Shown piece by piece: positions 19,966 through 57,496 of a DNA stretch of 59,977 bases. The notes beneath the pieces were generated by a model. It saw only the letters and a list, made by a program, of their open reading frames with translations, ran no database searches and was not told where the DNA came from. A program made the translations under genes and the position numbers. The stretch spans positions 1 to 59,977 of IMG/VR virus record IMGVR_UViG_3300025853_000004. One strand, 5' to 3'. Every line of letters begins with the position of its first letter. Position 1 is the first letter of the stretch. The stretch comes from a virus (Duplodnaviria > Caudoviricetes).

Positions 19966-20001
19966 GCGCTTTCCTCCGTTATTAAAGGCACCGTTTGGGC
20001 C

Positions 20002-20042
20002 TTGACATTTCTATATATAATCCTATGATTAGCAAGAGTCAA
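20002..20042. promoter_or_regulatory. Overlapping divergent sigma70 promoters
   Basis: Plus: TTGACA-N16-TATGAT. Minus: TTGACT-N17-TATATA. Confidence 0.7.
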
Positions 20043-20054
20043 GGGGAAAGTGAC

Positions 20055-21509
20055 ATGAATTTTGAAAACTATGAATTTAAGACTAAGCCGTATGATCATC
20101 AGCTTAACGCGCTACGCGACTCGTGGGCCGCGGAATACTATGCGCTGTTCATGGAGATGGGAACGGGTAAGTCGAAAGTTACAATTGATACGATGGGTAT
20201 GTTGTATGAAAAAGGTCATATCGACGCGGCGCTCATCATTGCTCCGAAGGGCGTCTACGATAACTGGGTTCGCAAAGAATTAGAAGCCCATTTGCCTGAG
20301 CGCATTGCAACGCAGGTCGTCCGTTGGACGCCTTCTGGTGCCAAGAGTTATCAGGACGAGCTAGTCAAGTTAGTCTACGAAGCCTTTGAAGGGCTTAAAA
20401 TTTTTGTGATGAACGTTGAGGCGTTTTCTACCCCACGGGGTACGCGAGCCGCGTATGAATTCTGCAAAAAGAATCCTGATAATTTAGTGATTGTTGATGA
20501 ATCGACGACGATTAAGAACAGAAAAGCACAGCGGACCGCGAACATTGTAGAACTGTTGAAGGTCAGCAAGTACCGTCGCATCCTCACAGGTTCTCCTATT
20601 ACAAAGTCCCCGATGGATTTGTTTAGCCAGTGCGCGTTCCTGTCCCCCAAGGCGCTTGGTATTAACTCGTACTACGGCTACCAGAACCGTTACGCCGTTG
20701 TACAGAAGCGCACGATGGGTCACAAAAGCTTTAATGAGATCACCGGCTACCGTCGTCTGGATGAGCTAAACGAAAAACTCGATAAGTTCAGCAATCGCGT
20801 ACTGAAGTCAGACTGTCTGGATTTGCCAGATAAAGTGTACATGCGGCGCAACGTCAGCCTGACCGATGAGCAAGCCAAAGCCTACAAACAAATGCAGAAA
20901 CTTGCTTTGGCAAAGCTGGAGTCTGGAGAGTTATCCACAACTGCGTCGGTATTAACCCAAATTATGCGATTACAGCAAATTTGTTGTGGACATCTTCCTG
21001 ACGATGCCGGTGATTTGCATACTTTAAAGAGCAATCGTTTGTCAGAACTGCTTGATATTATTGAAGAAACTTCTGGCAAGATCATTATATGGGCAACCTT
21101 TACGCATGATCTGAAGATTATTTATTCAGAGCTAACCAAGAAGTATGGCGAAGGCTCGTCCCGCATTTACTTTGGCGAGACGCCGCAGGATGAACGGCAA
21201 GAGATTGTTGAAACGTTCCAAGATCCTAACAGCGAGCTACGATTCTTTGTTGGCCAACCCCGCACAGGGGGCTACGGCATTACCCTGACCGAAGCAGGTA
21301 CTATGATCTACTACAATAACGGTTACGACTTAGAGATACGCTTGCAGTCAGAAGATCGCGCTCACCGCATTGGGCAAGAAAAGAACGTCACTTACATTGA
21401 TATTGTCACGCCAAACACCGTAGATGAAAAAATCCTCGGTGCTTTACGAGACAAGATTGATATCGCAGGTCAGGTCTTAGGTGAAGATACTAAGACTTGG
21501 TTGATCTAG
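20055..21509 (+). CDS. SNF2-like SF2 helicase
   Basis: EMGTGKS, IVDES, LTGSP, GGYGITL, QSEDRAHRIGQ; start at MNFENY after AAGGGG. Confidence 0.93.
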   Translation: MNFENYEFKTKPYDHQLNALRDSWAAEYYALFMEMGTGKSKVTIDTMGMLYEKGHIDAALIIAPKGVYDNWVRKELEAHLPERIATQVVRWTPSGAKSYQDELVKLVYEAFEGLKIFVMNVEAFSTPRGTRAAYEFCKKNPDNLVIVDESTTIKNRKAQRTANIVELLKVSKYRRILTGSPITKSPMDLFSQCAFLSPKALGINSYYGYQNRYAVVQKRTMGHKSFNEITGYRRLDELNEKLDKFSNRVLKSDCLDLPDKVYMRRNVSLTDEQAKAYKQMQKLALAKLESGELSTTASVLTQIMRLQQICCGHLPDDAGDLHTLKSNRLSELLDIIEETSGKIIIWATFTHDLKIIYSELTKKYGEGSSRIYFGETPQDERQEIVETFQDPNSELRFFVGQPRTGGYGITLTEAGTMIYYNNGYDLEIRLQSEDRAHRIGQEKNVTYIDIVTPNTVDEKILGALRDKIDIAGQVLGEDTKTWLI

Positions 21510-22212
21510 GCCGCATCTGCAAGCCCAGTGATCCGATGCCCGCGGTCACAGGGCCGCCTTGTGCGAAAGCCCTATCAAACTGAAAGCCGAAACCTCCGGG
21601 GACCTTACCCATAGAGAATCCACCGCCAAGACCTACGCGGCCATCACCAAACTGGCCGGCACCTAAAGCTTGTTCCATGGCTTCTTGAGGAGTTGTTGGA
21701 TTACCCATGGGCGTATTGATGGAATCCATTAATCTTCTTTCTTGCGGAGTCAAATCATCGACGTTTGGAACAGTCACGTTTGGCATATTGATCGCTAGAT
21801 TGTCGTAAAGACCACCCATTGGTGTCGTGGGCGTAACTGGCGCCGATGCAAAAGCCGAGCGTTGTGTAGATAAGTCTGTTACTTCAGGAGTACCGCGGTT
21901 AGATAGGTTGACCTGCCCTGCAAACGGACGCGAAAAATCTTCGACAACAACGCCGTTAGGTAGCGTTTTTGTATAGTTAGGAGTGCTTGTTACCGTAGCA
22001 GGCGTCGTGTTGAAGTTCACGGTGTTTCCACGGCTATCTGTACGCGTATTAGGTCCGGGTTGCGTGGTCCGCGATCCCTGCCCTGTTTGCTGATTTGAAT
22101 ACGCGCTATCGCTAGTGGAGTTATTTCCACCGCCACCACCACCGAAGCAGTACATGGACGTCTCTGGATCAAAACCGATTTGTTTTTTTCTTACGATGCC
22201 ATCTTCAAACAT
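21490..22212 (-). CDS. Low-complexity protein with CFGGGGGG leader motif; candidate acyltransferase substrate / ejection protein
   Basis: FDPETSMYCFGGGGGG near the N-terminus; FSMGKV and FAQGGPVTAGIGSL near the C-terminus; overlaps the acyltransferase gene by 22 bp. Confidence 0.7.
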   Translation of the reverse strand: MFEDGIVRKKQIGFDPETSMYCFGGGGGGNNSTSDSAYSNQQTGQGSRTTQPGPNTRTDSRGNTVNFNTTPATVTSTPNYTKTLPNGVVVEDFSRPFAGQVNLSNRGTPEVTDLSTQRSAFASAPVTPTTPMGGLYDNLAINMPNVTVPNVDDLTPQERRLMDSINTPMGNPTTPQEAMEQALGAGQFGDGRVGLGGGFSMGKVPGGFGFQFDRAFAQGGPVTAGIGSLGLQMRPRSTKS

Positions 22213-22625
22213 AATTCATCTCGTCTCTTTGCTATGCGTCCCAAGCGGTCTTTTGCGTACCGGAAAAAATGACATTCGCCTTTGACTGTCCCATATTGGG
22301 CCTGCAAAGTCTTGCCTGCATCCTTTACACATTGTCTCACATTTTTAAACGCAATAAAGTCGATGGCGTATAAACGGCCATCCTCTGGTCCGGTTTGCCA
22401 GTCGCTTGGTTGCAACTTATCTGTTTTTGTCAGATACCCAAGCTCTGTACACTCCGTTAAAAACGTGTAGGTAAAGAAGCCTATTGGCTCCTCACCGTCG
22501 TAGAAAAACTGAATCCTGTTGTTTTCAATCGCAGGAGTTATCCAGTCTTCCAGATCAGAAATAAACCACGGGCGATGGAAGTCGGACCGCATCATCAAGC
22601 TGACTGCCAGTCCGAGTTCGTTCAC
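22191..22625 (-). CDS. Toxin-activating lysine acyltransferase (HlyC/CyaC/RtxC family)
   Basis: LG..VSLM.RSDFHRPW (SxxH), PAI, PIGF.TY.FL, L.P.DW.TG, LYAIDFIA (catalytic Asp position); 144 aa. Confidence 0.88.
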   Translation of the reverse strand: MNELGLAVSLMMRSDFHRPWFISDLEDWITPAIENNRIQFFYDGEEPIGFFTYTFLTECTELGYLTKTDKLQPSDWQTGPEDGRLYAIDFIAFKNVRQCVKDAGKTLQAQYGTVKGECHFFRYAKDRLGRIAKRRDELCLKMAS

Positions 22626-25600
22626 GAGAACAAGGTTCCTATGCCGCCGGCCGCTCCCAAGATCGGATCGTTAGGGAACATCGCCGCTAACTGCTGACGT
22701 TGCTGTGGATTTGCTCCGCCTTGTGGTGGTGCGGGGGCCTGTGCAACAGGAGCGGGAGCCGCGGGCCGTGCTTGAGAAAGCGGCTGATATTGAGGCAATA
22801 TCGAAGGTGCCGGCCTATCCTGCGGCCTTTGAGGTAACAACTGAAGCGGGGAAATAGGAAGGTCTGCGGGATCGGATCTGGTTGGATCTTGTTCATCGCG
22901 CGTTGCTTCGCGTGGAATTGTCCGCGTTGCACGGCGCGGAACGATCATTCCGTAGTCCATTAACTTAGCTTCTAACAATCCCGCAATTCGTATTCCTTCT
23001 TTAGAATCGGGTTTATATTCGCGAAGTAACAGAGCTAACAAGTCAGGGTCCGTCATAATTTTGTGCATGACATCTCCGGCAAGAGCTTCCGGCAATCTAT
23101 CTACAAGATCTGAAACTGCTTTAGAACCAATGCCTGCCGCGGTAATCGAACCCGGTCCACCTTGGCCGCCAGTCAACAAGCTATATACACGCGTACCGGC
23201 CGCAGAACCAGAAATCTTGAACCATACAGCCAAACCGGCGTTCATTTTCTTTGTAAGTTCTGCGATGTCTTTGCCTTCTGACATACCGGCCTCAAATTTA
23301 ACGCCGTTCGTAACAAATTTGCGTAAGCGGTCTGCTTCGGATTGAGGCATCGCTTTGTTTTGAACAAGTAAGTCTATTAAAGGAACGGTAAATCGAGGCG
23401 CTACACCCTCTTTAACGCCAATTTCTGGCGGAACAAACAGCTTATTGTAAAGAACTTTGAAATTAATCATTCCGCCACTTGAGCCGGATTCCGTTAAAGC
23501 CCATTCAATTACTGCGTTTTTATATCCGCGTAATGCAGATTCGCGTATTTTTTCTGGCGCGTTTTCCGCGTAGCTCAGTAATCTGAGCATGTTAGGAAGA
23601 CGATTCTTTTTATCTTTCATTGCGCGCTCTATGGCAATCGCAGGATTGGTAACTCCTGTCCCTTCGCCATAAATACCCGCTGGCAAAAGATCCATGAAAG
23701 TAATCAAACTTTTTACTTTGGCGGTCTGCTCTTTCTGTGAAAGACGTCTACCATCTAACAAGGCCGCTCTACGCTCGACATTTTGCAAGTCACGATATAG
23801 TCCGGGAAATTGAGACAATATTTGTTCATGCTGTCTCATCCATTTTTGGAATTGACCTTCGTTAAAACTACCGTCCGTATTTCGGCCTACACTAAAATGA
23901 GCGTCGCGTAAGAGACTTTCGATAGCCATTTCTGTTGAAGCTTGAGCCGCTTTAGGGTCAAAACTAATTTCAGCCCCAGTCAAGGGGTCAGACAATCGTT
24001 GTTTTCCAACGTTGTTTGCTAAAGCAAATTTAGGAATGTCTAGTATTTGCTCTAATCGCAGAGTTGTAGCGTCTTCTGTACCCGCGCCCGTCTTCTGCCA
24101 CATAAGTTCCGGGGCTCCGCGATAAGCACCTGACGGAGATTTCTTTAATGCTTCTCCCGCATAACTACGGGTAAACGTATCGTTCAAAGCCCGAGAATAC
24201 GATCTAGCAATGTTATATGCCGCACCAGCTTCGGTGGCAGAAATGCTGTTCATGTCCTCAAGTAACGCATCAGCAAACTCAAAAACAATTCGCGCTTCAT
24301 CCACATCACCAGATGCGGCCAATTTTCTTCCACGAGCAAGGGCCGAGGACCGTGCTGATTGAAGCTCTTGTAGCGTTAAACCTTCTTTTGGTCGCGCAGT
24401 TACATCAAACTGACGAAGACGTTCTGTTCCTTCTGCGGCAACTTCGGCTGTCTCCTGTGCAACTTCGTCAGACGCTCCTGAAACTTCGTCAACGGTTGAC
24501 GTTGGGGCAAAGTTAAAATCGCCTTCGGAAGACATGCGAACCCGTGTCATCGCCACGGCTTCTTGCACATTGTTTGGTCCGGCTAAGGGTACCGTGCTAG
24601 ATGTAGCTCCTGCTCGAAAAGCGTCTGGACCGGTGCCGTTAATAATTGTTGCCGTATACGGAGTTATCCTATCCGAAGGGTCTAGTCGTAACTCCACCTT
24701 GTTGCCCATAGAGTCAACAACGGTTGTGACAAATCCGCCCTCTTCCCCTTTCCTTTGGAAAACTTTAAATCCGGAAGGGTCATCTCCCCGATCAGGCATC
24801 ATGTTTAATGCGGGCTGATAAAGTTTAGTTTTTTCTTTACCTAATCCGGACAAAGGCCCTGCATCTGCGGCTTGACGTGTAGCGGCTTGTGCCCCGTCCG
24901 TAGCTCCATCCGCTAATGGATCTACAAATTCAAATCCGTAATCTCGGGCTCTTCGACGAACCCAATTGTCTATCCAACGAAGACCGCCTTCTGTTAACGC
25001 TTCTTGTTCAAACTCAATTGCACCTTTTGCAGTCAAGTCTGACCACCGTGCAATAAATCCGGGGATGTCTGAAACATTACCATCGGCATCAGCAAACTGC
25101 GTTAAAGACGTGTTTGGCACGGCCTGCCAAAGCTGTCTTTCTTTTGCGCGGGCCGCATCCAACTGAACGCCCACAACTTCAAACAATTTTACAGACAACT
25201 CTCGCGTTCTTTTTCGGGCCTCTTCTTCGGGAGCGCCCATGATTAACTTGTTGTAAGCTTGGACTAAGTTTCTTTGCGCTCGGTCTACTTTATATTTAAG
25301 CGATTCATCAAAAGCCTCTTTTGCAAGCTGACCCGCAAGTTGTAACGCGTCGGAATCCTTTGAAATAGCCAGAGCATAAATCGTGTTCTGAAGCGCCATT
25401 AAAGCTTGTCGATTGGCTTCGTTTCTTGTTTCACCAATTTTCGAGTTAATTTGTTCAAGCGCCGCTTCTACTGCAAGCAATCCGGGACTTCCAGACTTGG
25501 CTCCAGCAGTTAGCTTAATCTTCTTACCGCTCTCATCGTACATGACCTGAGAAAGATCGTCGGAAGATAGCCGAGCGATTACCTCATCGATATCTTCTCC

Positions 25601-26833
25601 GTAAGTTTCTAAAACTTCTAAGATTTGCTCAATTGCCTTACGTTCACGACGGCCGCCAATTTTTTCTGCAAGCTCTTTACCCGTTTGTTTAAAGCCCTTG
25701 TCTCGAATATTGGTATATACCTGCTTAATGTCCGGGGCAAGACCCACTAATTTAGGAACTATAGTTGCCCCGAGAAGAGTGGGAGCAACGGCTCCTACCG
25801 TTTCGTAACCAATTCGAGTTGCAGGATCATTTGGATCAGACTCTTGAGCGTAGCCCGCCCCAATAGTAGATCCAGCAATGGGCAAAGATTCGACGCCTAA
25901 CGTCGTTTTTGGTTTTGTGCGCGCCGTTTGACCAAACGAAGTTAATCCTTTCTCTAATCCTGCGGCCATTTTCGCAGACCGGGGGACAGGGACAAATTGA
26001 TCCCCTTTAATTGATTTAACGGTTTTTTCCAACCCGCGTTTGTTCAATGTTGAAAGCGCGTCCTTGGTTAAAGGACCTACAGGAACCTGATCTGTCAGCA
26101 ATTTACGAACATAATCTTGAGCCGCGGTCACCGGTTTAACAGCGGTCATAAACGGATAAGGCAACCAAGCAAGGTTGCCCATCAAAGTTCGACCCATTTC
26201 ATAGTTTTTAAGCGCGCCCGGAGTCATTACGTCTTCTGGACCGGCCAAGTAACTACGCGTTAAATCAACACCTAAATAAGTTAAAACAGAAGAACCTAAT
26301 CCGGCTACCGCCGCGGCAGGGTAAAGCACTTGCGGAACCATTTTACCGGCCCCTGCTTGTAAAACTTTCTGACCCGTTTTAAAACCCGCATAGGCACTAG
26401 CTATAGCACTAGGCGCTTCACGAGCGGCCCCTTTCGCAAAATCTGTCAGGGTTCCTTCCGATAAAGGATTGCCTTCGGGATCCGTTGCAAAAGAAGAAAT
26501 AACAAGGCTAGGAGTATAAAGCGCACGTTCAGCAGGGGGTTTATCAGCATATTCTGCAATACGGTCAAAAATCGGGTTAGTGCCGTCGGCTAGCGTATCG
26601 TAATCAAGTTCCGGATGATCTAATTGTTGCTCTTGAATAATCTGACGAGCAAGAACTTCCGCGTACCCTTCGCCATAAGCATCAGCAAATTCTCTAACCT
26701 GATCGTTAGTTAACGTGACCGGATTAATTACCGGTTCACTAATCCCCGGAATTCCAGCGGAAGGATTGCTTTGTTGAACCGGGAGATCGGGATTGATTTC
26801 AACCACCACCCCAGCTTGTTCAGCTTCTGTCAT
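22622..26833 (-). CDS. Large internal virion (ejection) protein
   Basis: 1403 aa, helical and Ala-rich, last large gene of the structural operon; Pro/Gln tail ending FPNDPI...GIGTL. Confidence 0.7.
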   Translation of the reverse strand: MTEAEQAGVVVEINPDLPVQQSNPSAGIPGISEPVINPVTLTNDQVREFADAYGEGYAEVLARQIIQEQQLDHPELDYDTLADGTNPIFDRIAEYADKPPAERALYTPSLVISSFATDPEGNPLSEGTLTDFAKGAAREAPSAIASAYAGFKTGQKVLQAGAGKMVPQVLYPAAAVAGLGSSVLTYLGVDLTRSYLAGPEDVMTPGALKNYEMGRTLMGNLAWLPYPFMTAVKPVTAAQDYVRKLLTDQVPVGPLTKDALSTLNKRGLEKTVKSIKGDQFVPVPRSAKMAAGLEKGLTSFGQTARTKPKTTLGVESLPIAGSTIGAGYAQESDPNDPATRIGYETVGAVAPTLLGATIVPKLVGLAPDIKQVYTNIRDKGFKQTGKELAEKIGGRRERKAIEQILEVLETYGEDIDEVIARLSSDDLSQVMYDESGKKIKLTAGAKSGSPGLLAVEAALEQINSKIGETRNEANRQALMALQNTIYALAISKDSDALQLAGQLAKEAFDESLKYKVDRAQRNLVQAYNKLIMGAPEEEARKRTRELSVKLFEVVGVQLDAARAKERQLWQAVPNTSLTQFADADGNVSDIPGFIARWSDLTAKGAIEFEQEALTEGGLRWIDNWVRRRARDYGFEFVDPLADGATDGAQAATRQAADAGPLSGLGKEKTKLYQPALNMMPDRGDDPSGFKVFQRKGEEGGFVTTVVDSMGNKVELRLDPSDRITPYTATIINGTGPDAFRAGATSSTVPLAGPNNVQEAVAMTRVRMSSEGDFNFAPTSTVDEVSGASDEVAQETAEVAAEGTERLRQFDVTARPKEGLTLQELQSARSSALARGRKLAASGDVDEARIVFEFADALLEDMNSISATEAGAAYNIARSYSRALNDTFTRSYAGEALKKSPSGAYRGAPELMWQKTGAGTEDATTLRLEQILDIPKFALANNVGKQRLSDPLTGAEISFDPKAAQASTEMAIESLLRDAHFSVGRNTDGSFNEGQFQKWMRQHEQILSQFPGLYRDLQNVERRAALLDGRRLSQKEQTAKVKSLITFMDLLPAGIYGEGTGVTNPAIAIERAMKDKKNRLPNMLRLLSYAENAPEKIRESALRGYKNAVIEWALTESGSSGGMINFKVLYNKLFVPPEIGVKEGVAPRFTVPLIDLLVQNKAMPQSEADRLRKFVTNGVKFEAGMSEGKDIAELTKKMNAGLAVWFKISGSAAGTRVYSLLTGGQGGPGSITAAGIGSKAVSDLVDRLPEALAGDVMHKIMTDPDLLALLLREYKPDSKEGIRIAGLLEAKLMDYGMIVPRRATRTIPREATRDEQDPTRSDPADLPISPLQLLPQRPQDRPAPSILPQYQPLSQARPAAPAPVAQAPAPPQGGANPQQRQQLAAMFPNDPILGAAGGIGTLFS

Positions 26834-26842
26834 ACCCTTTCC

Positions 26843-28846
26843 TTACTCTTCTTCTTTAAACAAACGTTGGAAACCACCGGCACCTGCCTTCGGAGCATTT
26901 TTTATGTCATACGCTTTTTGGAAAACTTGGTAGCCCTGTCTGATTTGATACAGTTTATCTATTTTTTCTTGAACTTCCGAATACCGTTTGCTGTCCGCGG
27001 GATAGTCTTGAGAACTGATTTCTAACAAATTGATAGAATCGTCTGCGATAGCAATCAGTTGTCTTATCTTTGATGCCGCGGCATCATCTCCAACGAAGAA
27101 ACTTGCCGGATTTGCAGTGAGCTTTTTAAGTAACTCTAACTGCGCTACGCTATCTCTCAACTCAGCGGCATCCTGTAGGAGTTGAATATATCGTGTGTTA
27201 AGTGCTGTTGCGGCAGTGATCGCGTCTTTTTCAGGCGTGAAGGGTGCTCCGATTGCACCAAAACTTATACCTTCAACAAGGTTGTTTACGAGATTTTTAG
27301 CCAAGGCGTCTGAACCAAAGGCCGCGGCCGGATCTTTAAGACCCTTCGTAATTGAACTGGTCATCTCATTTCGGCGTTTTTGCCGTTGACTGGCAATAGA
27401 TCCCGGATCTGAAGGCGTTAATAAGTCATCCACTTTAACGTTTGGCACAGAAAGATCGCCATCACGACGCTTTCTAATCGCTCCGATCAATTCGTTAGAC
27501 AACGGATTTCCGGGGGAGAGCTTATAAACCTTGTTTTGTTCGTCCCAAACCTGCTTAGGATTGTTGTAATAAGCAATCGACTGGTTTAACTCTAACGTCT
27601 CTTCTGGGCCTAAAGTACCGTCGGCATAAGCTTTGATAGTTGCTGGATCTGAAATAAGAGTCGTGATCCGTGCTTCGATACTACCGCCAAGACGTCCAAG
27701 TCTTGCGGCCGCCGCGTCTATTTCTAGCTTCCGGATCTTATATGCTTGATCAAACGCTTGGTTTTGAATCTCAAGTTCTTGCGCTTGTCTTTCAAGCCGT
27801 AGCTTTTCCTCACCTTGTGAGGCGTTAGCTAACGTTCTTAATTCTTCAAGTTGAAGTCCTCGGTCTTTACGCTCAAGCTCAAGGCTTTGCATTTCGCGTT
27901 TCAAGGTTTGTTCTGAATTTAGAAGCTCTTGCGCCTGCTCATGCTTTAGTTCAATTTGCTCAATGTCGTAGCCGTTAGCCACGCCCATGCGATTCAGTTC
28001 AAGATCGGCTTTGATCTGAATGTTTTCTTTTTCTAATTGATCGGCAAGAACAAGGCTCGCTTCACTACCGTCTTGTCTTAATCTTTCGATGGATGTTCGG
28101 TTTGTTTGCTGAACATTTTCTAAAGCGACGCGGTTAACTTGACGACGATCTTCTAAACCTAAATCGTCAATGCTTTTAACATCTTGTAGTTCTATCCGCC
28201 CTGTTTGTTTCAATTTCTCCAATGCTTGATTAGAGGCAGATCCTAGCCGATCTTCAAGTTTGATCTTTGCAAAGTCCTGACTGCCTTTTAATTTTTGTAA
28301 CTTAATGTCTTCTTGTGCTTTTGCTTCAGCCGTAAATTGCGCTTCGGCAGACTGCAATGCCGCAAGTTGTGCTTTCTTAGTTTCACCTTCAACAGCTTGC
28401 TTAGATTCAAGTTGTTTTTGTGCGCGAGCAGAAATCGTTGGGAATAATTGCGTTTGCTGTGACGCTTCCGCCAAGCGTTCCGCAGGAGACATACCCGGCC
28501 GTGACCCGGCTGTACTAAACGCAAGCGCGGTGTTTGCAATGTCAAACAGCATTTGTGCCTGCGTTAAATCTTTCTGCTCTTTTAAACGGCTGGCCTGATC
28601 GGTTCCCATGATTCTTTCGTACAAAGGAACTTTTTGCTCATAAATTTGAGTCAACCGGTCAGGCTGTGGAGCGGGAGGAGCAACCACCGGCTCTTGAATA
28701 GAGCGTTGAGCCTTTGCCGTACCACGAAGAGAAGCCCCTAGCGACTCCGCAGGAGTAAGACCTATTGGTCTTCCTATTACTTGTTCGATAGGCTCGTTAT
28801 AAAAAGGTAAAGATCCAATACCGAAACGATCTACGGGCTGAGACAT
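26843..28846 (-). CDS. Coiled-coil internal virion (ejection) protein
   Basis: 667 aa, Q/E/L-rich heptads; position in the ejection module. Confidence 0.65.
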   Translation of the reverse strand: MSQPVDRFGIGSLPFYNEPIEQVIGRPIGLTPAESLGASLRGTAKAQRSIQEPVVAPPAPQPDRLTQIYEQKVPLYERIMGTDQASRLKEQKDLTQAQMLFDIANTALAFSTAGSRPGMSPAERLAEASQQTQLFPTISARAQKQLESKQAVEGETKKAQLAALQSAEAQFTAEAKAQEDIKLQKLKGSQDFAKIKLEDRLGSASNQALEKLKQTGRIELQDVKSIDDLGLEDRRQVNRVALENVQQTNRTSIERLRQDGSEASLVLADQLEKENIQIKADLELNRMGVANGYDIEQIELKHEQAQELLNSEQTLKREMQSLELERKDRGLQLEELRTLANASQGEEKLRLERQAQELEIQNQAFDQAYKIRKLEIDAAAARLGRLGGSIEARITTLISDPATIKAYADGTLGPEETLELNQSIAYYNNPKQVWDEQNKVYKLSPGNPLSNELIGAIRKRRDGDLSVPNVKVDDLLTPSDPGSIASQRQKRRNEMTSSITKGLKDPAAAFGSDALAKNLVNNLVEGISFGAIGAPFTPEKDAITAATALNTRYIQLLQDAAELRDSVAQLELLKKLTANPASFFVGDDAAASKIRQLIAIADDSINLLEISSQDYPADSKRYSEVQEKIDKLYQIRQGYQVFQKAYDIKNAPKAGAGGFQRLFKEEE

Positions 28847-28847
28847 G

Positions 28848-29531
28848 TTAGCCTCCCATCATTGACATAATCCCGCCGGCCATGTTGCCTTCTACGGGTT
28901 GTTGCATCTCTTGTTCTGCGAGTCCACCAATACCTTCGTCAACCAAGGACATTTGTACAACAGGCTGTACTAAGGCAAGAACAGATTCGGGAGTTTGCAT
29001 AGCGTCTTCTTCCCCGACTAAAGAAGCAAGCTCCATCCGACGTTGTTCGACAGACGCTTCATCGCCGCGAACAGAATTCATCATCGTTTCAAAATCTTCG
29101 GCTTCTTCTGGATTACCGATTTCTGGAGCAACTTCGCCCAACATTTGTTCAATTGTTGCAGGATCAACTTCGCCTACGCCCATACTCGCCATGTCCATTG
29201 CAGGTTCCGCGGGCATTGCTTCTTGAGGCATCATTGACGCAACACCTTGATCGACAGGTGCAGGCTGTGCCATTGCCGCCATCATCGGATCACCGCCCAT
29301 TTGCATACCGACAGGTGCTTGTTGAGGAGTATCCATAACAAACCCTGCGGAAACAAGCTGATCCATCATTTGAACATCTGCTTCGTTGGCCATGTCCAAC
29401 GTGACGCGCTCGCCGCTTTGTGGGTTAACCAAGGTCGCCATCTGGCCTGTAGGCGCACCGCCTCGTTCCATCATCTTGACGGGGCCGCCGTACCTAAACA
29501 TTTGCCGTTGCATTACGCTTCTGTTCATCAT
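28848..29531 (-). CDS. Met/acid-rich internal virion protein
   Basis: Three GG motifs; MMNSVRGD...RRMELASLVG...TPESVLALVQP. Confidence 0.65.
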   Translation of the reverse strand: MMNRSVMQRQMFRYGGPVKMMERGGAPTGQMATLVNPQSGERVTLDMANEADVQMMDQLVSAGFVMDTPQQAPVGMQMGGDPMMAAMAQPAPVDQGVASMMPQEAMPAEPAMDMASMGVGEVDPATIEQMLGEVAPEIGNPEEAEDFETMMNSVRGDEASVEQRRMELASLVGEEDAMQTPESVLALVQPVVQMSLVDEGIGGLAEQEMQQPVEGNMAGGIMSMMGG

Positions 29532-30385
29532 CCGAATAGTCCTGCTTTACTTGCGCCTGCCGCGGCGGAAAGCCCTGCAATACCTAGCCCGAGGTATTGT
29601 TGAGCCGGTGAAACACTTGGTGCTGTTGCGGACGCAATAGATTGTTGCGTCGATGGTGCACCTTTATAAATATCTGATAAATATGAGAATCTTTGGTATG
29701 GCTCATACAACTGTGCAAGGTCGCTTTGACGCTGTGCTTCCAGTTCTGCCTGCTGTTGTGCTTGTTGACGCTGACCAATATCGAATAAGAATTGAGATTC
29801 TTGCTGACCCATTTTTTGGCCAAGCTCGCCAAGGCTTGCCTGACGTAAGCCTAATGTGCCCAATAGTTCGCCTTGTTGCTGAACTCGGGCTAATTCATTT
29901 GCGGCCGCTTGTTGTGCCTGCATAAAGTTTTGCGCTTGTGATTGAGCAAGAGCCGCGGCACGATTGCGGTCAATCTCGTTTTGCGCTACCTGCGCTCGGG
30001 ATCCGCCAAAAGCTCCTGCCCCTACGGCCTGCCCTGCCGCTTGGTTTTGTTGAATATCAAAAGACCGGTTGATTTCAGCTTGAACTGCATCCTGAAAAGG
30101 ATTCATGTAGCGTTCAATCATTTCACCCGTTACTTGTTGAGGGCCAGCTAACGACTGATAAGCATCGCCCATCGTATAGCCGCCTTCTGTTAAGTACGGC
30201 ATAAAGGACCCAATGCCCGCTGATGCGAGGTCCGCGGCGCGTTGCTGAAGGGCTGATTGTTCAGCAATTTGCTGAACGGGAAGCGTAATCGGCCTATCCG
30301 CAAGATCTTTTGCGGATTTTAGAAGCCCTAGTTTATAGGCTTCAATCTCGGGGGCTTCGCGAACAATTTCAGTAGTAGTTGCCAT
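29528..30385 (-). CDS. DNA pilot / ejection protein
   Basis: Q/A-rich; YMNPF...AVGAGAFGGSR; hydrophobic Gly/Ala C-terminus. Confidence 0.7.
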   Translation of the reverse strand: MATTTEIVREAPEIEAYKLGLLKSAKDLADRPITLPVQQIAEQSALQQRAADLASAGIGSFMPYLTEGGYTMGDAYQSLAGPQQVTGEMIERYMNPFQDAVQAEINRSFDIQQNQAAGQAVGAGAFGGSRAQVAQNEIDRNRAAALAQSQAQNFMQAQQAAANELARVQQQGELLGTLGLRQASLGELGQKMGQQESQFLFDIGQRQQAQQQAELEAQRQSDLAQLYEPYQRFSYLSDIYKGAPSTQQSIASATAPSVSPAQQYLGLGIAGLSAAAGASKAGLFG

Positions 30386-32181
30386 TACGCCACCTGTCCT
30401 CGTGTTTCAAGGTTACGCATCATCGAATACATGTTGTTGATGCCTTGATTTAAGTTCCCGCCACCTAGACCGCGAACCGCGTCCTTGGTCATGACAAACT
30501 CACCCGGCATCAGCAATGCTCGAACGCTGTCTTGGTCTGGGATGCCTTCGTTTGGCATGATGCCGCCATTACGACGTGGATACACTTCGCCGCCTGCCGC
30601 CGCCCGCATTTGCGGAGCTTGGTAACGCATAAACGGGTTACTAAAGAGCGTTTGTTGTGGGGTCAAGCCATACTGACTTCCAACAACATACTGACCTTGC
30701 GAGTACCGTGGGTCGCGGCCCGCGAGCATAAATTGCTCTGGGTTTTGTGCGACAAGATCAACCCCGGTTTGTTGGAACTCTTCGGCTAATTCGTTTGTTT
30801 CTTCTTCTGGCGTTTCAAAGAATCCACCGGCTGTCGCGCCTAAAGTGGCTAGACCTGCGATTGGGGCATAACGGGAGATCATACTTGGAGTCGCTTTTGC
30901 AATATTTTCTTGAGCTATTTTATAAGCAACATCATCCGTATAATTTAACCCTTTTAATCGAGCCACTTCCGCTTCAAGTCCGGGAACTGTGTCGGGAACA
31001 CGCGGATCAAAAAAGTCTAATGCCTTTTGACCATACCCTTTAGCCGTGTCAAGGAGACTTGTTTCTGCTCCAGTGCTACCCGCAGTGCTACCCGCCTGTT
31101 CTGCAAAGCTGGCTACACGATCCGGAGTTGGTCCGCCTGTTCCACCGAAGCGGTAGTCGTAACCTACCCCATCCGTGCTAGCACTCCTAGCTCCCTTGAA
31201 GCCCGTGTAATTTCGTCCGGTTGGATCAAAGTTGCCAGAAGCGTCTTGAAAATAAGGGTCGTTCATCATTGCAACGTCTGGATCTAAAGACGGAGCTTTA
31301 CCTCGAATATCAACCGCTTGTGTATATTCTTCCATTGGCGTAGTTCCCGCAAGCTCTTGAGCTTCGCTCACGCCTGCATCAGCACGGCCCGCGGCAATAT
31401 CATCAGCAATTTGATCGCCCGTTGGAGCGAAGCTTCTGAACGGATCTCCAGCACCTAGCGCCTTTCCTGTCTGACTCAAACGGCCCATTGGGTTTGCCGC
31501 CGCTTCTTTAATGCCCTCAGTAAATGTACCGCCGCCAAGCTTGGAAGAAACACCGGAGAACACGGCGCCAGAAACTCCAGAAATCAAAGCTGATTTCAAA
31601 GCGTCTTTAATATTACCGCCTTGAATCAAGGTACCAATACCTGATCCGAGGGCCGCGCCATAAATTGCACCAAGCGGGGTCATCGCTAACGCGATTGGAA
31701 GAACAACCGGGGCAACTTTTTTCAGTACCTTACCGACTTTGCTTACCGCTTTGCTAACGCCTTTAGCAACGTTAGAAACAGTTTTTCTAACGCCGCGGAA
31801 AATTTTCTTCAAAAAGAATTCGGGCATACCCGTGTCTGGGTTAATGGAGTTTGCACTCGATCCAACCACATACCGATCAGGATCTTCAATCCCCATATCG
31901 CGCAGGTGGCTGAAAATAGATTCTTTAAGTTCAGGGCTTTGTTCTAATAAGGCCCGTGGTACGAGAAGCTCGCCTGTTTCAGCGTGAACGACTTGATCAT
32001 CGCCATAACGGCCATAAGATGCCATGCGTTTTGCAATTGGTTCAAAACGCGCAATCCCCGAATCACCAAACTCTTCACGGGCTTCTTCTGCTTCGAGAGC
32101 CGCGATCTCTGCATCAGACATTACAAAGTCTGCGATGCCGCCTGCTGGGATCAGTTCTTCTTGAAGTTGTGCCTGTGCCAT
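30385..32181 (-). CDS. Internal virion protein with amphipathic and hydrophobic membrane-interacting segment
   Basis: GDDQVVH..GE, INPDTGMPEF, Lys-rich helix, hydrophobic stretch, C-terminal DSVRALLMPGEFVM. Confidence 0.7.
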   Translation of the reverse strand: MAQAQLQEELIPAGGIADFVMSDAEIAALEAEEAREEFGDSGIARFEPIAKRMASYGRYGDDQVVHAETGELLVPRALLEQSPELKESIFSHLRDMGIEDPDRYVVGSSANSINPDTGMPEFFLKKIFRGVRKTVSNVAKGVSKAVSKVGKVLKKVAPVVLPIALAMTPLGAIYGAALGSGIGTLIQGGNIKDALKSALISGVSGAVFSGVSSKLGGGTFTEGIKEAAANPMGRLSQTGKALGAGDPFRSFAPTGDQIADDIAAGRADAGVSEAQELAGTTPMEEYTQAVDIRGKAPSLDPDVAMMNDPYFQDASGNFDPTGRNYTGFKGARSASTDGVGYDYRFGGTGGPTPDRVASFAEQAGSTAGSTGAETSLLDTAKGYGQKALDFFDPRVPDTVPGLEAEVARLKGLNYTDDVAYKIAQENIAKATPSMISRYAPIAGLATLGATAGGFFETPEEETNELAEEFQQTGVDLVAQNPEQFMLAGRDPRYSQGQYVVGSQYGLTPQQTLFSNPFMRYQAPQMRAAAGGEVYPRRNGGIMPNEGIPDQDSVRALLMPGEFVMTKDAVRGLGGGNLNQGINNMYSMMRNLETRGQVA

Positions 32182-34834: not shown

Positions 34835-35869
34835 TTAAGCTATGTATGTACCGGAGTCTTTGTAGATCAAAATTGTATCCGCCCCGTCCGTGACTACTGT
34901 CGGAGATCCTGTAACTGCGCCTGAGTAGTTTGCTGTGAGCATTCTTAAAATAACTACACCTGAACCACCCGCAGATGCGGCTGGACCATCGTAAGCGGCT
35001 CCGCCGCCACCGCCAGTGTTAGGAGAACCCGCAGTCGATGCCGTACCTCCGGATACTGTACTTGCATTACCGCCACCGCCTAAGCCTCCGGGGCCAACAC
35101 TACCGTTAGAAGCACCACCGCCGCCTCCGGCGTAGTAAACATCAGATCCTGAGACTTCTCCTACGGATTGTGCTGTTGCAATAGTAGACGAGATAATTGT
35201 GGAGATAGCTCCAATGCCGCCAGTAGAACCTGCCGTACCTGCCGGGTTTCCTCCGCCTACTGCTCCGGCACCACCGCCTGCACCGCCACCGTTAGTACCA
35301 GATGTAGCATTGCCGCCATTATTACCTTGTCCCGCAGTACCTGATCCTCCAAGACCTGCGCTATAACCGCCGCCTCCACCAGATCCACCACTTTTACCGG
35401 TTCTTGCGGCACCACCCGCACCACCGCCTCCGCCTCCTACAGCGGTATAGATTGAAAAAACACTGTCTTCACCGTTAGTGCCATCACCGGCGGCTGTATT
35501 GGTATCGGCAGTTCCTTGCGCCCCGCCGCCTCCAACAGTAATAACGTATGTAGTGCCTTGGGATAATGACTCATCAGTAAGTGAGCGCATTCCGCCTGCA
35601 CCACCGCCTCCGCCACCACCGCTTCCTGATCCTGCACCACCCCCGCCTCCTGCGACAAGCAACGCATCAACAGTATAAGTAACTGCTTGCGTACCTACTG
35701 TGACCCACTCAGTACCGTTATAGGTTTCTACAACATTTTCGGTAGTGTTTTGACGTATCATTCCCTCAACAGGCGAACTTGGACGTTGAGCAGTCGTGCC
35801 CGCAGGCAAATAAACCGCGTCGGTTTTTGAATCAGGGCTAATGCTTGACAGGCCGCGAGCTTTGGTCAT
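34835..35869 (-). CDS. Glycine-rich tail fibre / adhesin
   Basis: LPAGTTAQRP head, LLVAGGGGG, GGSGVVI; polyglycine repeats. Confidence 0.8.
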   Translation of the reverse strand: MTKARGLSSISPDSKTDAVYLPAGTTAQRPSSPVEGMIRQNTTENVVETYNGTEWVTVGTQAVTYTVDALLVAGGGGGAGSGSGGGGGGGAGGMRSLTDESLSQGTTYVITVGGGGAQGTADTNTAAGDGTNGEDSVFSIYTAVGGGGGGAGGAARTGKSGGSGGGGGYSAGLGGSGTAGQGNNGGNATSGTNGGGAGGGAGAVGGGNPAGTAGSTGGIGAISTIISSTIATAQSVGEVSGSDVYYAGGGGGASNGSVGPGGLGGGGNASTVSGGTASTAGSPNTGGGGGAAYDGPAASAGGSGVVILRMLTANYSGAVTGSPTVVTDGADTILIYKDSGTYIA

Positions 35870-36665: not shown

Positions 36666-37724
36666 CTACAAGCTAAACTGTATATTGCCAGTTCCAGCGG
36701 TAAATGTGGTTATCTTATTCCCGCCTGAAGACGCGGTGCTAAACGTCAAACCGCCGCCCGGGTTAGAAACGCTAATTGTGTCTGAATACTTAATGACCAC
36801 AACACCCGATCCACCGGCTCCAGAAGTACCTCCACCGGCTCCTGCGCCACCGCCACCGCCACCGGTGTTAGTCGTTCCGCTAGTTGCCGTTCCAGTTGTG
36901 GATCCAGCGCCACCTCCGCTACTTGCAGTGCCCGGAGTATCTGCGGCGACACAACCCCCGCCGCCACCACCTGCCCTTGCTACTGAGTCAATAGAGCTTG
37001 TTAAACCGGCACCGCCATTACCACCGCCTGAACTTGTCCCCGCGCTTCCATTGCCACCAGCACCGCCGCCACCGCCACCAGCGCCGTTATTGGCAGATGT
37101 GTGTCCTGCGCCGCCGTCACCACCTTGGTTAGACGTACCAGAAGCACCGGAAGTATTAGTACCGCCTGCACCACCACCAGATCCACCAGTGTTACCTGTA
37201 CCGTTAGTACCACCGCCCCCGCCACCAGTAGATGTAATGGTGGAAAATACAGAATTAGTACCATTTTCTCCGACTGCGTCAGAACCGGATCTTGCGGCAC
37301 CGCCCCCGCCAACAGTAACGGTATATGAGGTGTCTAACGCTAAAGATAAAGTTGATTCCGCTGAAGAATTGTCACCAGAAGTACCAACCGATGTACGATA
37401 ACCCCCGGCACCACCACCGCCAGCGCCAGCGCCATATCTACCCCCGGAAGCGCCACCAGCAACAACTAAAAAATCTACCGAGATACTACGATTAGGCTCG
37501 TCACTAAAATTAACCCAAGAGCTTGAAAATTCGTCATACCATTCCGGCTCAGACGTTGATGTATTAAACCGCACATAACCATCAGCAGGAGACCCCGGAC
37601 GCTGTGCCGTAGTTCCTGATGGAAGAGCAAAGAATCCTGTAGAGGTGTTGGCTGAGTCAGACACCCCTGTGGCATCAACCGCGCCAGCTTCTAAAGCATC
37701 TGATCCAATCTTACTGATCGCCAT
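36666..37724 (-). CDS. Glycine-rich tail fibre / adhesin
   Basis: LPSGTTAQRP, FLVVAGG, GGSGVVVIKY; paralogue of 34835-35869. Confidence 0.8.
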   Translation of the reverse strand: MAISKIGSDALEAGAVDATGVSDSANTSTGFFALPSGTTAQRPGSPADGYVRFNTSTSEPEWYDEFSSSWVNFSDEPNRSISVDFLVVAGGASGGRYGAGAGGGGAGGYRTSVGTSGDNSSAESTLSLALDTSYTVTVGGGGAARSGSDAVGENGTNSVFSTITSTGGGGGGTNGTGNTGGSGGGAGGTNTSGASGTSNQGGDGGAGHTSANNGAGGGGGGAGGNGSAGTSSGGGNGGAGLTSSIDSVARAGGGGGGCVAADTPGTASSGGGAGSTTGTATSGTTNTGGGGGGAGAGGGTSGAGGSGVVVIKYSDTISVSNPGGGLTFSTASSGGNKITTFTAGTGNIQFSL

Positions 37725-54562: not shown

Positions 54563-54982
54563 TTAGAAATGAAGAACGTCTTCTGGGGAACTAATCCTCG
54601 CCAGAATTTCGTCGTCGTTAAGAATCCGCACTTCCCCGCCATCAATATTGAAACGAGACCCGGAATAGCGGGCAAACATTACCCAGTCTTTTTCCGCGCA
54701 CCAAGGCCCGCTAGGGAACTTGTCTTCGTCTTGATAGGCTAAAGGTCCAACTTTAAGCACATAGCCTACTTGCGTAGACACTTGTTGTTGCTCAAGAGTT
54801 TTGTCGGCCAAAAGGATTCCGCCTTCTGTTTTGCCTTTACCACGGTAGGGAAGAATAAGAATACGCCACCCGGTAGGGGTCGGTAGTCTTTCTAAGAGAG
54901 ATCCGCCAATGGCTTCTGGATCAAGGAACTTTGCGCGTTCCTCTTTATACGCTTCTTCAAGCGTCGCGACTTCTTCAGTCAT
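54563..54982 (-). CDS. groES: GroES-like co-chaperonin
   Basis: P.G.RILI...KT.GGI.L...G.V..VG...DWV.F.RY.G...RILNDDEILA. Confidence 0.9.
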   Translation of the reverse strand: MTEEVATLEEAYKEERAKFLDPEAIGGSLLERLPTPTGWRILILPYRGKGKTEGGILLADKTLEQQQVSTQVGYVLKVGPLAYQDEDKFPSGPWCAEKDWVMFARYSGSRFNIDGGEVRILNDDEILARISSPEDVLHF

Positions 54983-55246: not shown

Positions 55247-55687
55247 TTAAACGTTACGCATCCTTGTAACAAGACGATCCGCACGGTTGGTGACTTGGCG
55301 GTACCATTTGCTATCAACCATCTCGTCTGCGGCTTGATTCCAGTCGCGCGCATCAACCCCGGCTTTCATGCCTTTAAACTGGCTCAAACGCGGCCGGCCC
55401 ATGTTAAACATCATGTTTGCAATAATCAGTTGTACTTCTTCTGGAAGGTCGTCGAAGTCTTCGTACAAACGCTGACATTCGTCTAAAGTTACTTCGATGT
55501 CTTGTTCAAAAACTTCGGCAACGCGCTCTGCTGATACTTCTGTTCCAACTTCTTCGCCATACTCTTCATCGTCTTCTGTAACGAGGTGGCCAATTCCGAA
55601 AGTCGGGTAACCAAGGTGGTCCAAATAGATTTCATATTTGCATCCTTCGTCTTCTTCCAGTTCTACTCTTAATTTTTCTAAATTCAT
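55247..55687 (-). CDS. Endolysin (T4-lysozyme-like, GH24)
   Basis: DEG...IY.D.LG.PT.GIGHL (E-D-T triad), NM.FNMG, AA.EM.DS.WY.Q..NRA.RL. Confidence 0.92.
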   Translation of the reverse strand: MNLEKLRVELEEDEGCKYEIYLDHLGYPTFGIGHLVTEDDEEYGEEVGTEVSAERVAEVFEQDIEVTLDECQRLYEDFDDLPEEVQLIIANMMFNMGRPRLSQFKGMKAGVDARDWNQAADEMVDSKWYRQVTNRADRLVTRMRNV

Positions 55688-57046: not shown

Positions 57047-57496
57047 CTAAGACCCTTTAAGGCTAATAAGCCAAAGTAAAAGGGCCACGGCCCCGCCAAC
57101 CACACCGAGAACAGCAATGCCAACAGCCACATACAAAAATCCATTCTGTACGGCTTTTTTACGAGCCAGTGCTTTAGCTTCTGCACGTTTCTTTTCGTTC
57201 TCCCGCATTTGCTTACGGTTGGCTATGAACTTTTGGTAGTCATCCCACAGTCCGGCCCTACCGTTATAGATAAACATTTGTTTTATTTCAGCTTCTTTCT
57301 TGCGAATGTCTTCTAAGGCAAAGAAAGCATCCATGTCACCATCTTTGGCTTTCTTTTCTATTTCGCCTTTAGCGTCAGCAAGTTTGGTAAGTTGGGGACC
57401 CATTTCACCGACCGACGAAACGTGACCGGCAAACTCTTTGATTGCGCCGATAGCCTCATTTGCTATTTTAATTGCGGCTATGGCTTCAAAGATCAT
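57047..57496 (-). CDS. Coiled-coil protein with C-terminal TM helix
   Basis: Helical body; FLYVAVGIAVLGVVGGAVALLLWLI. Confidence 0.75.
   Translation of the reverse strand: MIFEAIAAIKIANEAIGAIKEFAGHVSSVGEMGPQLTKLADAKGEIEKKAKDGDMDAFFALEDIRKKEAEIKQMFIYNGRAGLWDDYQKFIANRKQMRENEKKRAEAKALARKKAVQNGFLYVAVGIAVLGVVGGAVALLLWLISLKGS

Follow-up and report, generated by a model that had tools for sequence, protein, structure and literature searches.

What does a toxin-activating acyltransferase (TAAT) do in a tailed phage? Canonical TAATs acylate internal lysines of very large proteins, and the family, which includes HlyC, CyaC, and ApxC, takes its fatty acyl chain from acylated acyl carrier protein (acyl-ACP). 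We addressed this question for the virus IMGVR_UViG_3300025853_000004 (Duplodnaviria; Caudoviricetes), whose genome was analyzed over its full 59,977 nucleotides (here called the window). An initial annotation had proposed that a 144-amino-acid (aa) open reading frame (ORF) is a HlyC-type enzyme coupled to a 240-aa downstream gene that encodes a candidate substrate. We found that the enzyme belongs to this family and that the gene pair recurs in other phages, where the downstream product (the partner) is marked by a short, glycine-containing tag at or near its N terminus; the enzyme probably lipidates the partner at or near this tag. Our analysis exactly reproduced the three ORFs of the locus, with a 4-bp overlap between the genes for the giant protein and HlyC (22622-22625) and a 22-bp overlap between those for HlyC and the partner (22191-22212), as listed here.

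22622-26833, minus strand: 1403-aa giant protein, presumed internal virion or DNA-ejection protein, with the C terminus ...GGIGTLFS
22191-22625, minus strand: 144-aa HlyC/TAAT-family acyltransferase with a GTG start (PF02794, ApxC fold)
22584-22586, 22575-22577, and 22359-22361, minus strand: codons of S14, H17, and D89 of the enzyme (S-x-x-H and Asp motif)
21490-22212, minus strand: 240-aa partner, lysine poor and mostly disordered, with no family match

The 144-aa ORF encodes a HlyC-family acyltransferase

To characterize the enzyme, we compared the 144-aa ORF with protein families and structures. It matched the HlyC profile PF02794 with 59.8 bits (cut-off, 25; E = 3.2e-16) and also PHROG 20210; NCBIfam gave no match for this ORF or for the partner. 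The sequence contains S14, H17, PAI (residues 31 to 33), DWQTG (75 to 79), and IDFIA (88 to 92, including D89). A histidine and an aspartate, with a nearby serine, have a catalytic role in HlyC and ApxC, and in a sequence match to ApxC (PDB code 4WHN; E = 5.7e-5), H17 and D89 aligned to the corresponding residues of the ApxC segments LHRKW and FIDWIA. An AlphaFold model of the protein had a predicted local distance difference test score (pLDDT) of 85.3, and its top fold matches in the Protein Data Bank (PDB) were three chains of 4WHN (E = 6.5e-8 to 1.8e-7; TMq, 0.72 to 0.74). Ordinary GCN5-related N-acetyltransferases were far behind, with E values of at least 3.6e-3.

A HMMER pass that covered 1.84 billion representatives yielded 301 library relatives of the enzyme at E <= 1e-3. 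We aligned 37 homologs, namely, the window sequence, 3 of 11 close matches, and 33 of the 150 listed among the 301 relatives. S14 was invariant in this alignment, and L10, H17, D89, and A92 were each conserved in at least 90% of sequences. The Ser, His, and Asp residues were retained in 14 of 16 phage representatives, and nine phage representatives from other groups scored 41.9 to 77.7 bits against PF02794. The 144-aa ORF is thus a true HlyC/TAAT-family acyltransferase by every testable criterion, which bears out the initial annotation on both profile and structure searches. RTX repeats (PF00353) were not found in the complete phage, whereas control genomes gave matches; the reported absence of an RTX toxin therefore stands, and the phage system is not an RTX activation system.

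A scan of genome contigs with the window HlyC found no relative, and no longer, fused form was found among its close relatives, which is weak evidence. Fused forms do occur among the 150 listed relatives. P0109 (334 aa) joins a PHROG 308 internal virion protein to HlyC, P0154 (988 aa) has HlyC at the end of a phage-like protein of ~850 aa, and P0167 (633 aa) combines HlyC with an S-adenosylmethionine (SAM) methyltransferase and a QueC-like region. P0076 is a tandem double HlyC of 412 aa.

HlyC genes are paired with a tagged downstream gene

We next asked what lies beside HlyC genes in other phages. The sample comprised 45 HlyC ORFs, those of the window and of viral loci fetched by searches seeded with HlyC relatives as single-protein queries, and it included cultured carriers. 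A leader tag was defined as a 20- to 45-aa leader ending in (C/L)(F/L)-(G/S/N)-G-(D/G)-G, and a direct tag as a start with M-(G/S)-G. By these definitions, the ORF downstream of HlyC was tagged at 40 of the 45 loci (27 with the leader motif and 13 with the direct start), in line with the coupling and co-occurrence that the initial annotation had anticipated. Each of the five remaining loci missed for its own reason. L030 has a one-residue variant (WCFNSDGD), CRP-235 was missed through the start chosen by the ORF caller (the annotated start reads MGGGGGD), the downstream ORF of L014 is interrupted, the partner in HTVC115P starts MGAISRVFKG, and HTVC103P has no motif downstream. In direct-start partners, the ATG always lay 9 nucleotides past the HlyC stop codon, and five of the eight listed had the spacer TAGGAG-N7-ATG, in which GGAG overlaps the stop codon.

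Hardly any ORF other than the HlyC partners bears the tag. Among 403 unique ORF N termini of the same loci, the motif [CL][FL][GSN]G[DG]G occurred within the first 70 aa of 16, and 15 of these ORFs were directly downstream of HlyC; the 16th, in L039, is a homolog of the 240-aa partner, and there the end of the contig truncates the upstream sequence. Likewise, 10 of the 403 started with M[GSA]G[GDAM], 8 of them partners. In a blind test, the only metagenome locus for P0068, whose context was not known beforehand, read portal, HlyC, and a partner with "...EMRYCFGGDGAG". The pairing recurred in every examined phage lineage with an intact catalytic motif.

The surroundings of the pair varied widely. 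HTVC023P-type loci have the order giant (1182 to 1525 aa), HlyC, a 199- to 318-aa ORF, and a convergent helicase, and the 4-bp overlap between giant and HlyC was present in the 17 such loci that retain enough upstream sequence (those listed are L001, L002, L010-L013, L016, L018-L024, and L026; the partial giant of L003 also overlaps by 4 bp). Across these loci, HlyC identity to the window fell to ~39%, and the downstream proteins were mostly not alignable with the window partner; each of them combines a leader that terminates in (C/L)(F/L)-G-G-D-G-G-G with GGAVxxGIGS(L/I/F) at the C terminus. Elsewhere, the cassette lies upstream of TerL with a 518- to 539-aa partner containing RWCFNGDGDDG, between TerL and portal with 99- to 128-aa partners that start MGGGLP, MGGGFN, or MGGMGH, or beside the PHROG 308 "internal virion protein" with partners that start MSGDAEGG. 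In Roseobacter phage CRP-235, gp30 (HlyC) is followed by gp29, which carries the glycine start given above. Across these contexts, only the downstream tagged partner was constant.

When we searched the "phages" collection, the 7-kb region (megablast) and HlyC and the partner (tblastn) found nothing. More distant HlyC queries of that collection recovered the four cultured carriers, HTVC103P, HTVC104P, HTVC115P, and CRP-235, in all of which GenBank annotations label the HlyC homolog. Queries with P0063 and P0068 gave no match in viral contigs.

HlyC homologs of the two pelagiphage groups HTVC103P/104P and HTVC115P lack S-x-x-H in the alignment, yet they score above the Pfam threshold. At L042:4986-5435 (HTVC103P) and L043:4908-5357 (HTVC115P), A..Y or H..W stands in its place, so that these pelagiphage homologs may, from their sequences, be catalytically divergent. 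The HTVC115P partner, gp45, has a very lysine-rich N terminus. Some phage partners start MGGG and continue into a lysine-rich amphipathic stretch.

The partner is a disordered protein with conserved ends

To explore what the enzyme might act on, we examined the 240-aa protein. It had no Pfam or PHROG match, and the protein atlas returned only low-score viral "hypothetical" clusters. It was predicted to be mostly disordered (mean pLDDT, 50.2), with a model too poor for a fold search. All of the features described in the initial annotation are present, namely, five lysines, a single GK (in FSMGKV), CFGGGGGG at residues 22 to 29, and GIGSL at 225 to 229; the protein has one cysteine. The relevant segments are as follows.

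22144-22212, minus strand: 23-aa N-terminal leader ending M-Y-C-F, conserved in relatives
22126-22143, minus strand: glycine run, residues 24 to 29, conserved junction and candidate modification or recognition site
21526-21558, minus strand: C-terminal GGPVTAGIGSL, of a type found in 9 of 16 partner representatives (groups A to D)

We found 51 relatives of the partner, 26 of which were aligned, and HlyC was directly upstream in all four further viral loci that retain upstream sequence. The conserved parts of these proteins are the leader, the junction C-F-(G)n, and GGxV..GIGSL at the C terminus. Of the 26, the 21 members with a leader have their only cysteine at the junction; the 5 leaderless members have none. 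Leaderless proteins start MSGDKSG or MGGSSGG, with their methionine aligned to the phenylalanine that precedes the glycine run, and the gene for the MSGDKSG form directly follows HlyC. The junction to which the initial annotation had drawn attention is thus the conserved feature. Proteins without a leader begin right at the glycine run, in agreement with the further idea that cleavage exposes an N-terminal glycine. No protease for leader removal of the C39, S78, or S49 type was found in the phage, although controls gave matches. Prohead protease profiles PF04586 and PF01343 were not found in the genome, where many head-module ORFs lack assignable function.

Several other accounts of the leader were rejected. 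A lipoprotein signal with lipobox or a Sec signal was ruled out by eye, as there is no hydrophobic core. Hedgehog- or intein-type autoprocessing at "GCF" was discarded because no Hint domain follows and, by eye, a single group has a G before the C. The option of a start within the ORF, at M20, is, also by eye, not shared by all groups. A double-glycine bacteriocin-type leader does not fit, since C39 (PF03412) is absent and the start of leaderless forms precedes the GG instead of following it.

The initial annotation had singled out the lysine of FSMGKV (K203) as the target by comparison with VSVGKR, the sequence that it gave for HlyA. The five lysines and the glycine-rich context favor it. However, no lysine column was invariant in the 26 aligned partners (the best reached 19/26 and 16/26), and the GK column had K in 11 of 26, the rest being R, N, A, Q, D, L, M, or E. 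L003 has GN at this position beside an HlyC that is 92% identical to that of the window, and partners of other lineages have no region alignable to the K203 stretch. Epsilon-acylation of K203 is therefore rejected as extremely improbable. The universal partner feature is only the junction or an N-terminal (G/S/N/A)-G-(D/G) motif; many partners, though not all, have a lysine nearby, and some leaders have none.

The pair is an accessory, mosaic cassette

Comparison with complete relatives showed the cassette to be accessory. HlyC was absent from all four (DSL-LC04, HTVC023P, HTVC027P, and 023Pt_psg01) in a search that recovers the window HlyC, and none of the four has a gene like that for the 240-aa partner at the corresponding position. 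The slot holds nothing in DSL-LC04 and a small protein with a hydrophobic C terminus, a nuclease-like gene, or a peptidase M15 in the others. Disorder and hypervariability mark the bodies of the partners. L001 has a HlyC that is 100% identical to that of the window and a leader with 83% identity over 24 aa, whereas the partner body is unrelated; therefore, the leader stays with the enzyme when bodies are swapped. From its sequence, the body looks like an exchangeable, fast-evolving module.

At L001:6414-7666, the partner keeps both the leader and the C-terminal motif around its unrelated body, and this contig has an extra 183-aa gene whose product ends in a similar motif, GGMV...QGIAPLF.

The cassette adjoins presumed ejection proteins

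The two cassette genes lie at the end of a block of large proteins, with these neighbors.

26843-32181, minus strand: 667-, 227-, 285-, and 598-aa proteins, presumed ejection module (PHROG matches, shared motif)
19995-21509, plus strand: 504-aa convergent helicase, which closes the operon
21526-21540, 22631-22645, 28808-28822, 30203-30217, and 31627-31641, minus strand: GIG(S/T)(L/F) sites from a six-frame search

The 285-aa protein matches PHROG 4287, "DNA ejection protein," and the 598-aa protein matches endolysin and tape-measure PHROGs. The giant has 26% identity to the "DNA transfer protein" of DSL-LC04 over 38% of the giant's length. The motif GI(G/A)(S/T/P)(L/V/I/F) occurs five times in the six frames of the window, each time in one of five adjacent proteins of the ejection block. 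It is placed at the C termini of the partner and the giant, at the N terminus of the 667-aa protein, or internally, often after GG(P/A)V, and three of the four module proteins contain GIG(S/T)(L/F). Giants of HlyC-bearing loci end in GI(G/A)(S/G/T)L in 11 of the 13 listed, compared with none of four large proteins in HlyC-less relatives. Motif, position, and gene fusions thus place the cassette with internal virion proteins and make the partner a candidate for packaging. The GIG(S/T)(L/F) motif may serve as a signal in packaging, docking, or processing.

A possible lipidation system for a particle protein

We propose that HlyC and the downstream gene form a translationally coupled two-gene cassette for an enzyme and its dedicated substrate, the latter a disordered, hypervariable, lysine-poor protein that would be recognized through its short N-terminal tag. 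At a late stage of infection, host acyl-ACP, the donor typical of the family, would supply a fatty acyl chain that the enzyme attaches at or near the tag. The lipidated partner would then be built into the particle with the neighboring internal and ejection proteins and would help them to make contact with the host membrane as the genome is delivered. Judged from gene content and conservation, the proposal that the enzyme lipidates the partner at or near the tag, and that the partner belongs among the internal virion or ejection proteins, has a probability of roughly 0.55. Complex predictions for HlyC with the 240-aa partner, made from alignments, scored 0.08 and 0.20, below the 0.32 mark, which neither supports the pairing nor tells against it.

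Several observations weigh against this proposal. HTVC103P and HTVC104P, and in part HTVC115P, depart from the pairing pattern. The partner family has no invariant lysine column (19/26 and 16/26 at best) and some leaders have no lysine, and the junction cysteine is missing from one leader group (LLLGGDGGG). The window partner keeps its leader, for which the protease searches described above were negative. In addition, the evidence that the partner is packaged consists only of gene position and the shared motif. Finally, the cassette may travel as one unit, and the searches were seeded with HlyC; the lineages are thus not independent origins.

As to the acceptor, leader-bearing and leaderless forms are equivalent at the motif, and therefore the new N terminus could serve. 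The first tag residue would be exposed by methionine excision in leaderless proteins or by leader removal in those of the window type, and its alpha-amino group, that of the first residue of (G/S/A)-G-(D/G), would then be acylated in place of a lysine. We put this forward tentatively, as possible but on balance unlikely.

Other substrates and roles have to be considered. The enzyme could acylate lysines of the giant or of another internal virion protein, with the downstream gene as a co-traveler or adaptor. The giant has 76 lysines, its gene shares 4 bp with HlyC in the window and in the other HTVC023P-type loci with enough upstream sequence, HlyC is naturally fused to virion or phage-like proteins in P0109 and P0154, and very large proteins acylated internally are what canonical TAATs act on. 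However, the upstream neighbor varies among small genes on the opposite strand, TerL, and portal, and in CRP-235 it is formed by small or tail-fiber genes, while the tagged downstream gene is constant, and HlyC-less relatives keep the giant; we therefore regard such a substrate as unlikely. Alternatively, the partner could be lipidated and remain outside the particle, acting within the cell on the inner membrane in lysis, membrane remodeling, or superinfection exclusion. Nothing in the partner looks, by eye, like a signal peptide or a hydrophobic stretch, and contact with a membrane would therefore hinge on the lipid. An annotated lysozyme follows the partner in CRP-235, the partners of L011 and L013 are followed by a 150-aa ORF that looks like an M15-type peptidase (by eye, from the L011 sequence, not by search), and the slot in HlyC-less relatives holds a 63- to 72-aa protein with a hydrophobic C terminus, which in 023Pt_psg01 precedes a peptidase M15. 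Set against these points, the C-terminal GGxV..GIGSL is common to the giant and other module proteins, the cassette adjoins portal or TerL in other lineages, and the window has its own lysozyme gene elsewhere (55247-55687), and we consider this role quite unlikely.

An enzyme directed at the host or at a nonprotein acceptor, in effect an auxiliary gene whose glycine-tagged neighbor is unrelated to its activity, appears very unlikely. It would account for the HlyC homologs of HTVC103P and HTVC104P, which lie in an early/replication region beside an untagged coiled-coil protein, and for the fusion of HlyC to methyltransferase and QueC-like domains in P0167. Yet the HTVC103P/104P exceptions are those that lack S-x-x-H in the alignment, the tag is nearly confined to HlyC partners, and the HlyC and partner genes are translationally coupled.

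Relation to known acylation systems

The phage enzyme resembles the RTX acyltransferases HlyC, CyaC, and ApxC in family, fold, and the Ser-x-x-His plus Asp motif, and it too is a small single-domain protein encoded beside a presumed substrate. Unlike the RTX systems, the phage has no RTX toxin, RTX repeats, or type I secretion partner. Its gene sits in a morphogenesis operon, and the presumed substrates are disordered proteins of 100 to 540 aa with a glycine tag and no conserved lysine.

By analogy, the nearest functional precedent would be CdiC and CdiA. In the available portion of PMC8510554, CdiC is described as a TAAT that lipidates a non-RTX substrate, CdiA, in class IV contact-dependent inhibition. 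As proposed for the phage pair, a TAAT homolog has been co-opted for a non-RTX substrate of the same locus, and the same portion of the source proposes that the lipid fastens a delivery protein to the envelope of the target cell. CdiC differs in that it acts on a bacterial surface protein, at one specific lysine within a folded receptor-binding domain (PMC8510554, same portion), whereas the phage system has a viral carrier, a disordered partner, and no specific conserved lysine.

For acylation of an N-terminal glycine, AatD would be the nearest analogy. As described in the accessible part of PMC7943197, it acylates the N-terminal glycine of CexE/Aap that is exposed by leader removal. It differs from the phage enzyme in belonging to an unrelated family, as a membrane N-acyltransferase (PMC7478709, in its accessible part), and in serving bacterial secretion with a Sec signal-peptide leader. 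The likeness would lie in a dedicated acyltransferase and a partner with an N-terminal glycine, which in the phages is suggested by the pairs of leader-bearing and leaderless proteins.

Animal viruses offer another parallel. Picornavirus VP4 and reovirus mu1N are N-myristoylated internal capsid proteins that are released at entry and engage the host membrane, and these viruses use the N-myristoyltransferase and acyl-CoA of the host. VP4 and mu1N are likened to the phage partners as small or disordered internal proteins with an N-terminal glycine, some phage partners starting MGGG. The difference is that the phage brings its own TAAT-type enzyme; phage lipidation is here a prediction from gene content.

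HlyC homologs have been named in phages before. The label "HlyC, toxin-activating lysine-acyltransferase" appears in a figure legend for marine phages in 10.1101/2019.12.14.876532. Within the available text of that paper, such genes are labels only, with no discussion of what they do or of a partner or tag; in PMC9038755, phage HlyC terms are missing from the main text. The cultured marine podophages carry the same Pfam family as the window, and gp30/gp29 of CRP-235 are the same cassette. Our search of the literature did not find phage-encoded lipidation, or N-terminal glycine acylation of tailed-phage virion proteins, in print.

If the enzyme does lipidate the partner, the cassette would add a novel means of getting through the bacterial envelope, and the substrate range of TAATs would extend beyond RTX toxins and CdiA. 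If the alpha-amino group is the acceptor, this would be phage-encoded N-terminal fatty acylation by a TAAT enzyme, a new chemistry for the HlyC family, and a bacterial-virus counterpart, in a marine phage group that is among the most abundant, of the myristoylated entry peptides of animal viruses. The glycine tag would give a simple rule for finding substrates of orphan HlyC homologs, and the presence of the cassette in cultured phages such as CRP-235 makes the proposal directly testable.

Genome setting

The phage genome is complete, with direct terminal repeats, and nearly all of its genes are on the minus strand. PHROG scans identified portal, GroES, capsid, and tail and tail-fiber genes, followed by the block of large proteins that have no assigned family (598, 285, 227, 667, and 1403 aa). 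Because its DNA polymerase is 48 to 56% identical to those of DSL-LC04, 023Pt_psg01, and the Pelagibacter phages HTVC023P and HTVC027P, we assigned the phage to the HTVC023P-type group. The HTVC023P/vSAG 37-F6 group is placed among the most abundant marine viruses in the available text of 10.1101/2019.12.14.876532. The G+C content of the window, ~48%, suggests a host other than SAR11. A promoter and terminator scan of 21000-23000 gave matches at chance level only.

The GroES cochaperonin (PHROG 3188) is encoded at 54563-54982 on the minus strand; the same part of 10.1101/2019.12.14.876532 reports GroES in HTVC023P and HTVC027P as well. Two paralogs of ~350 aa (PHROG 2295; 34835-35869 and 36666-37724, both on the minus strand) adjoin the tail-fiber genes, and the first of them has eight runs of 4 to 7 glycines. 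A PHROG 32327 protein (~150 to 160 aa) is encoded near the portal gene at 57047-57496 on the minus strand. A copy in an unrelated phage type, L028:8979-9461, lies directly after the HlyC partner and has a C-terminal hydrophobic segment.

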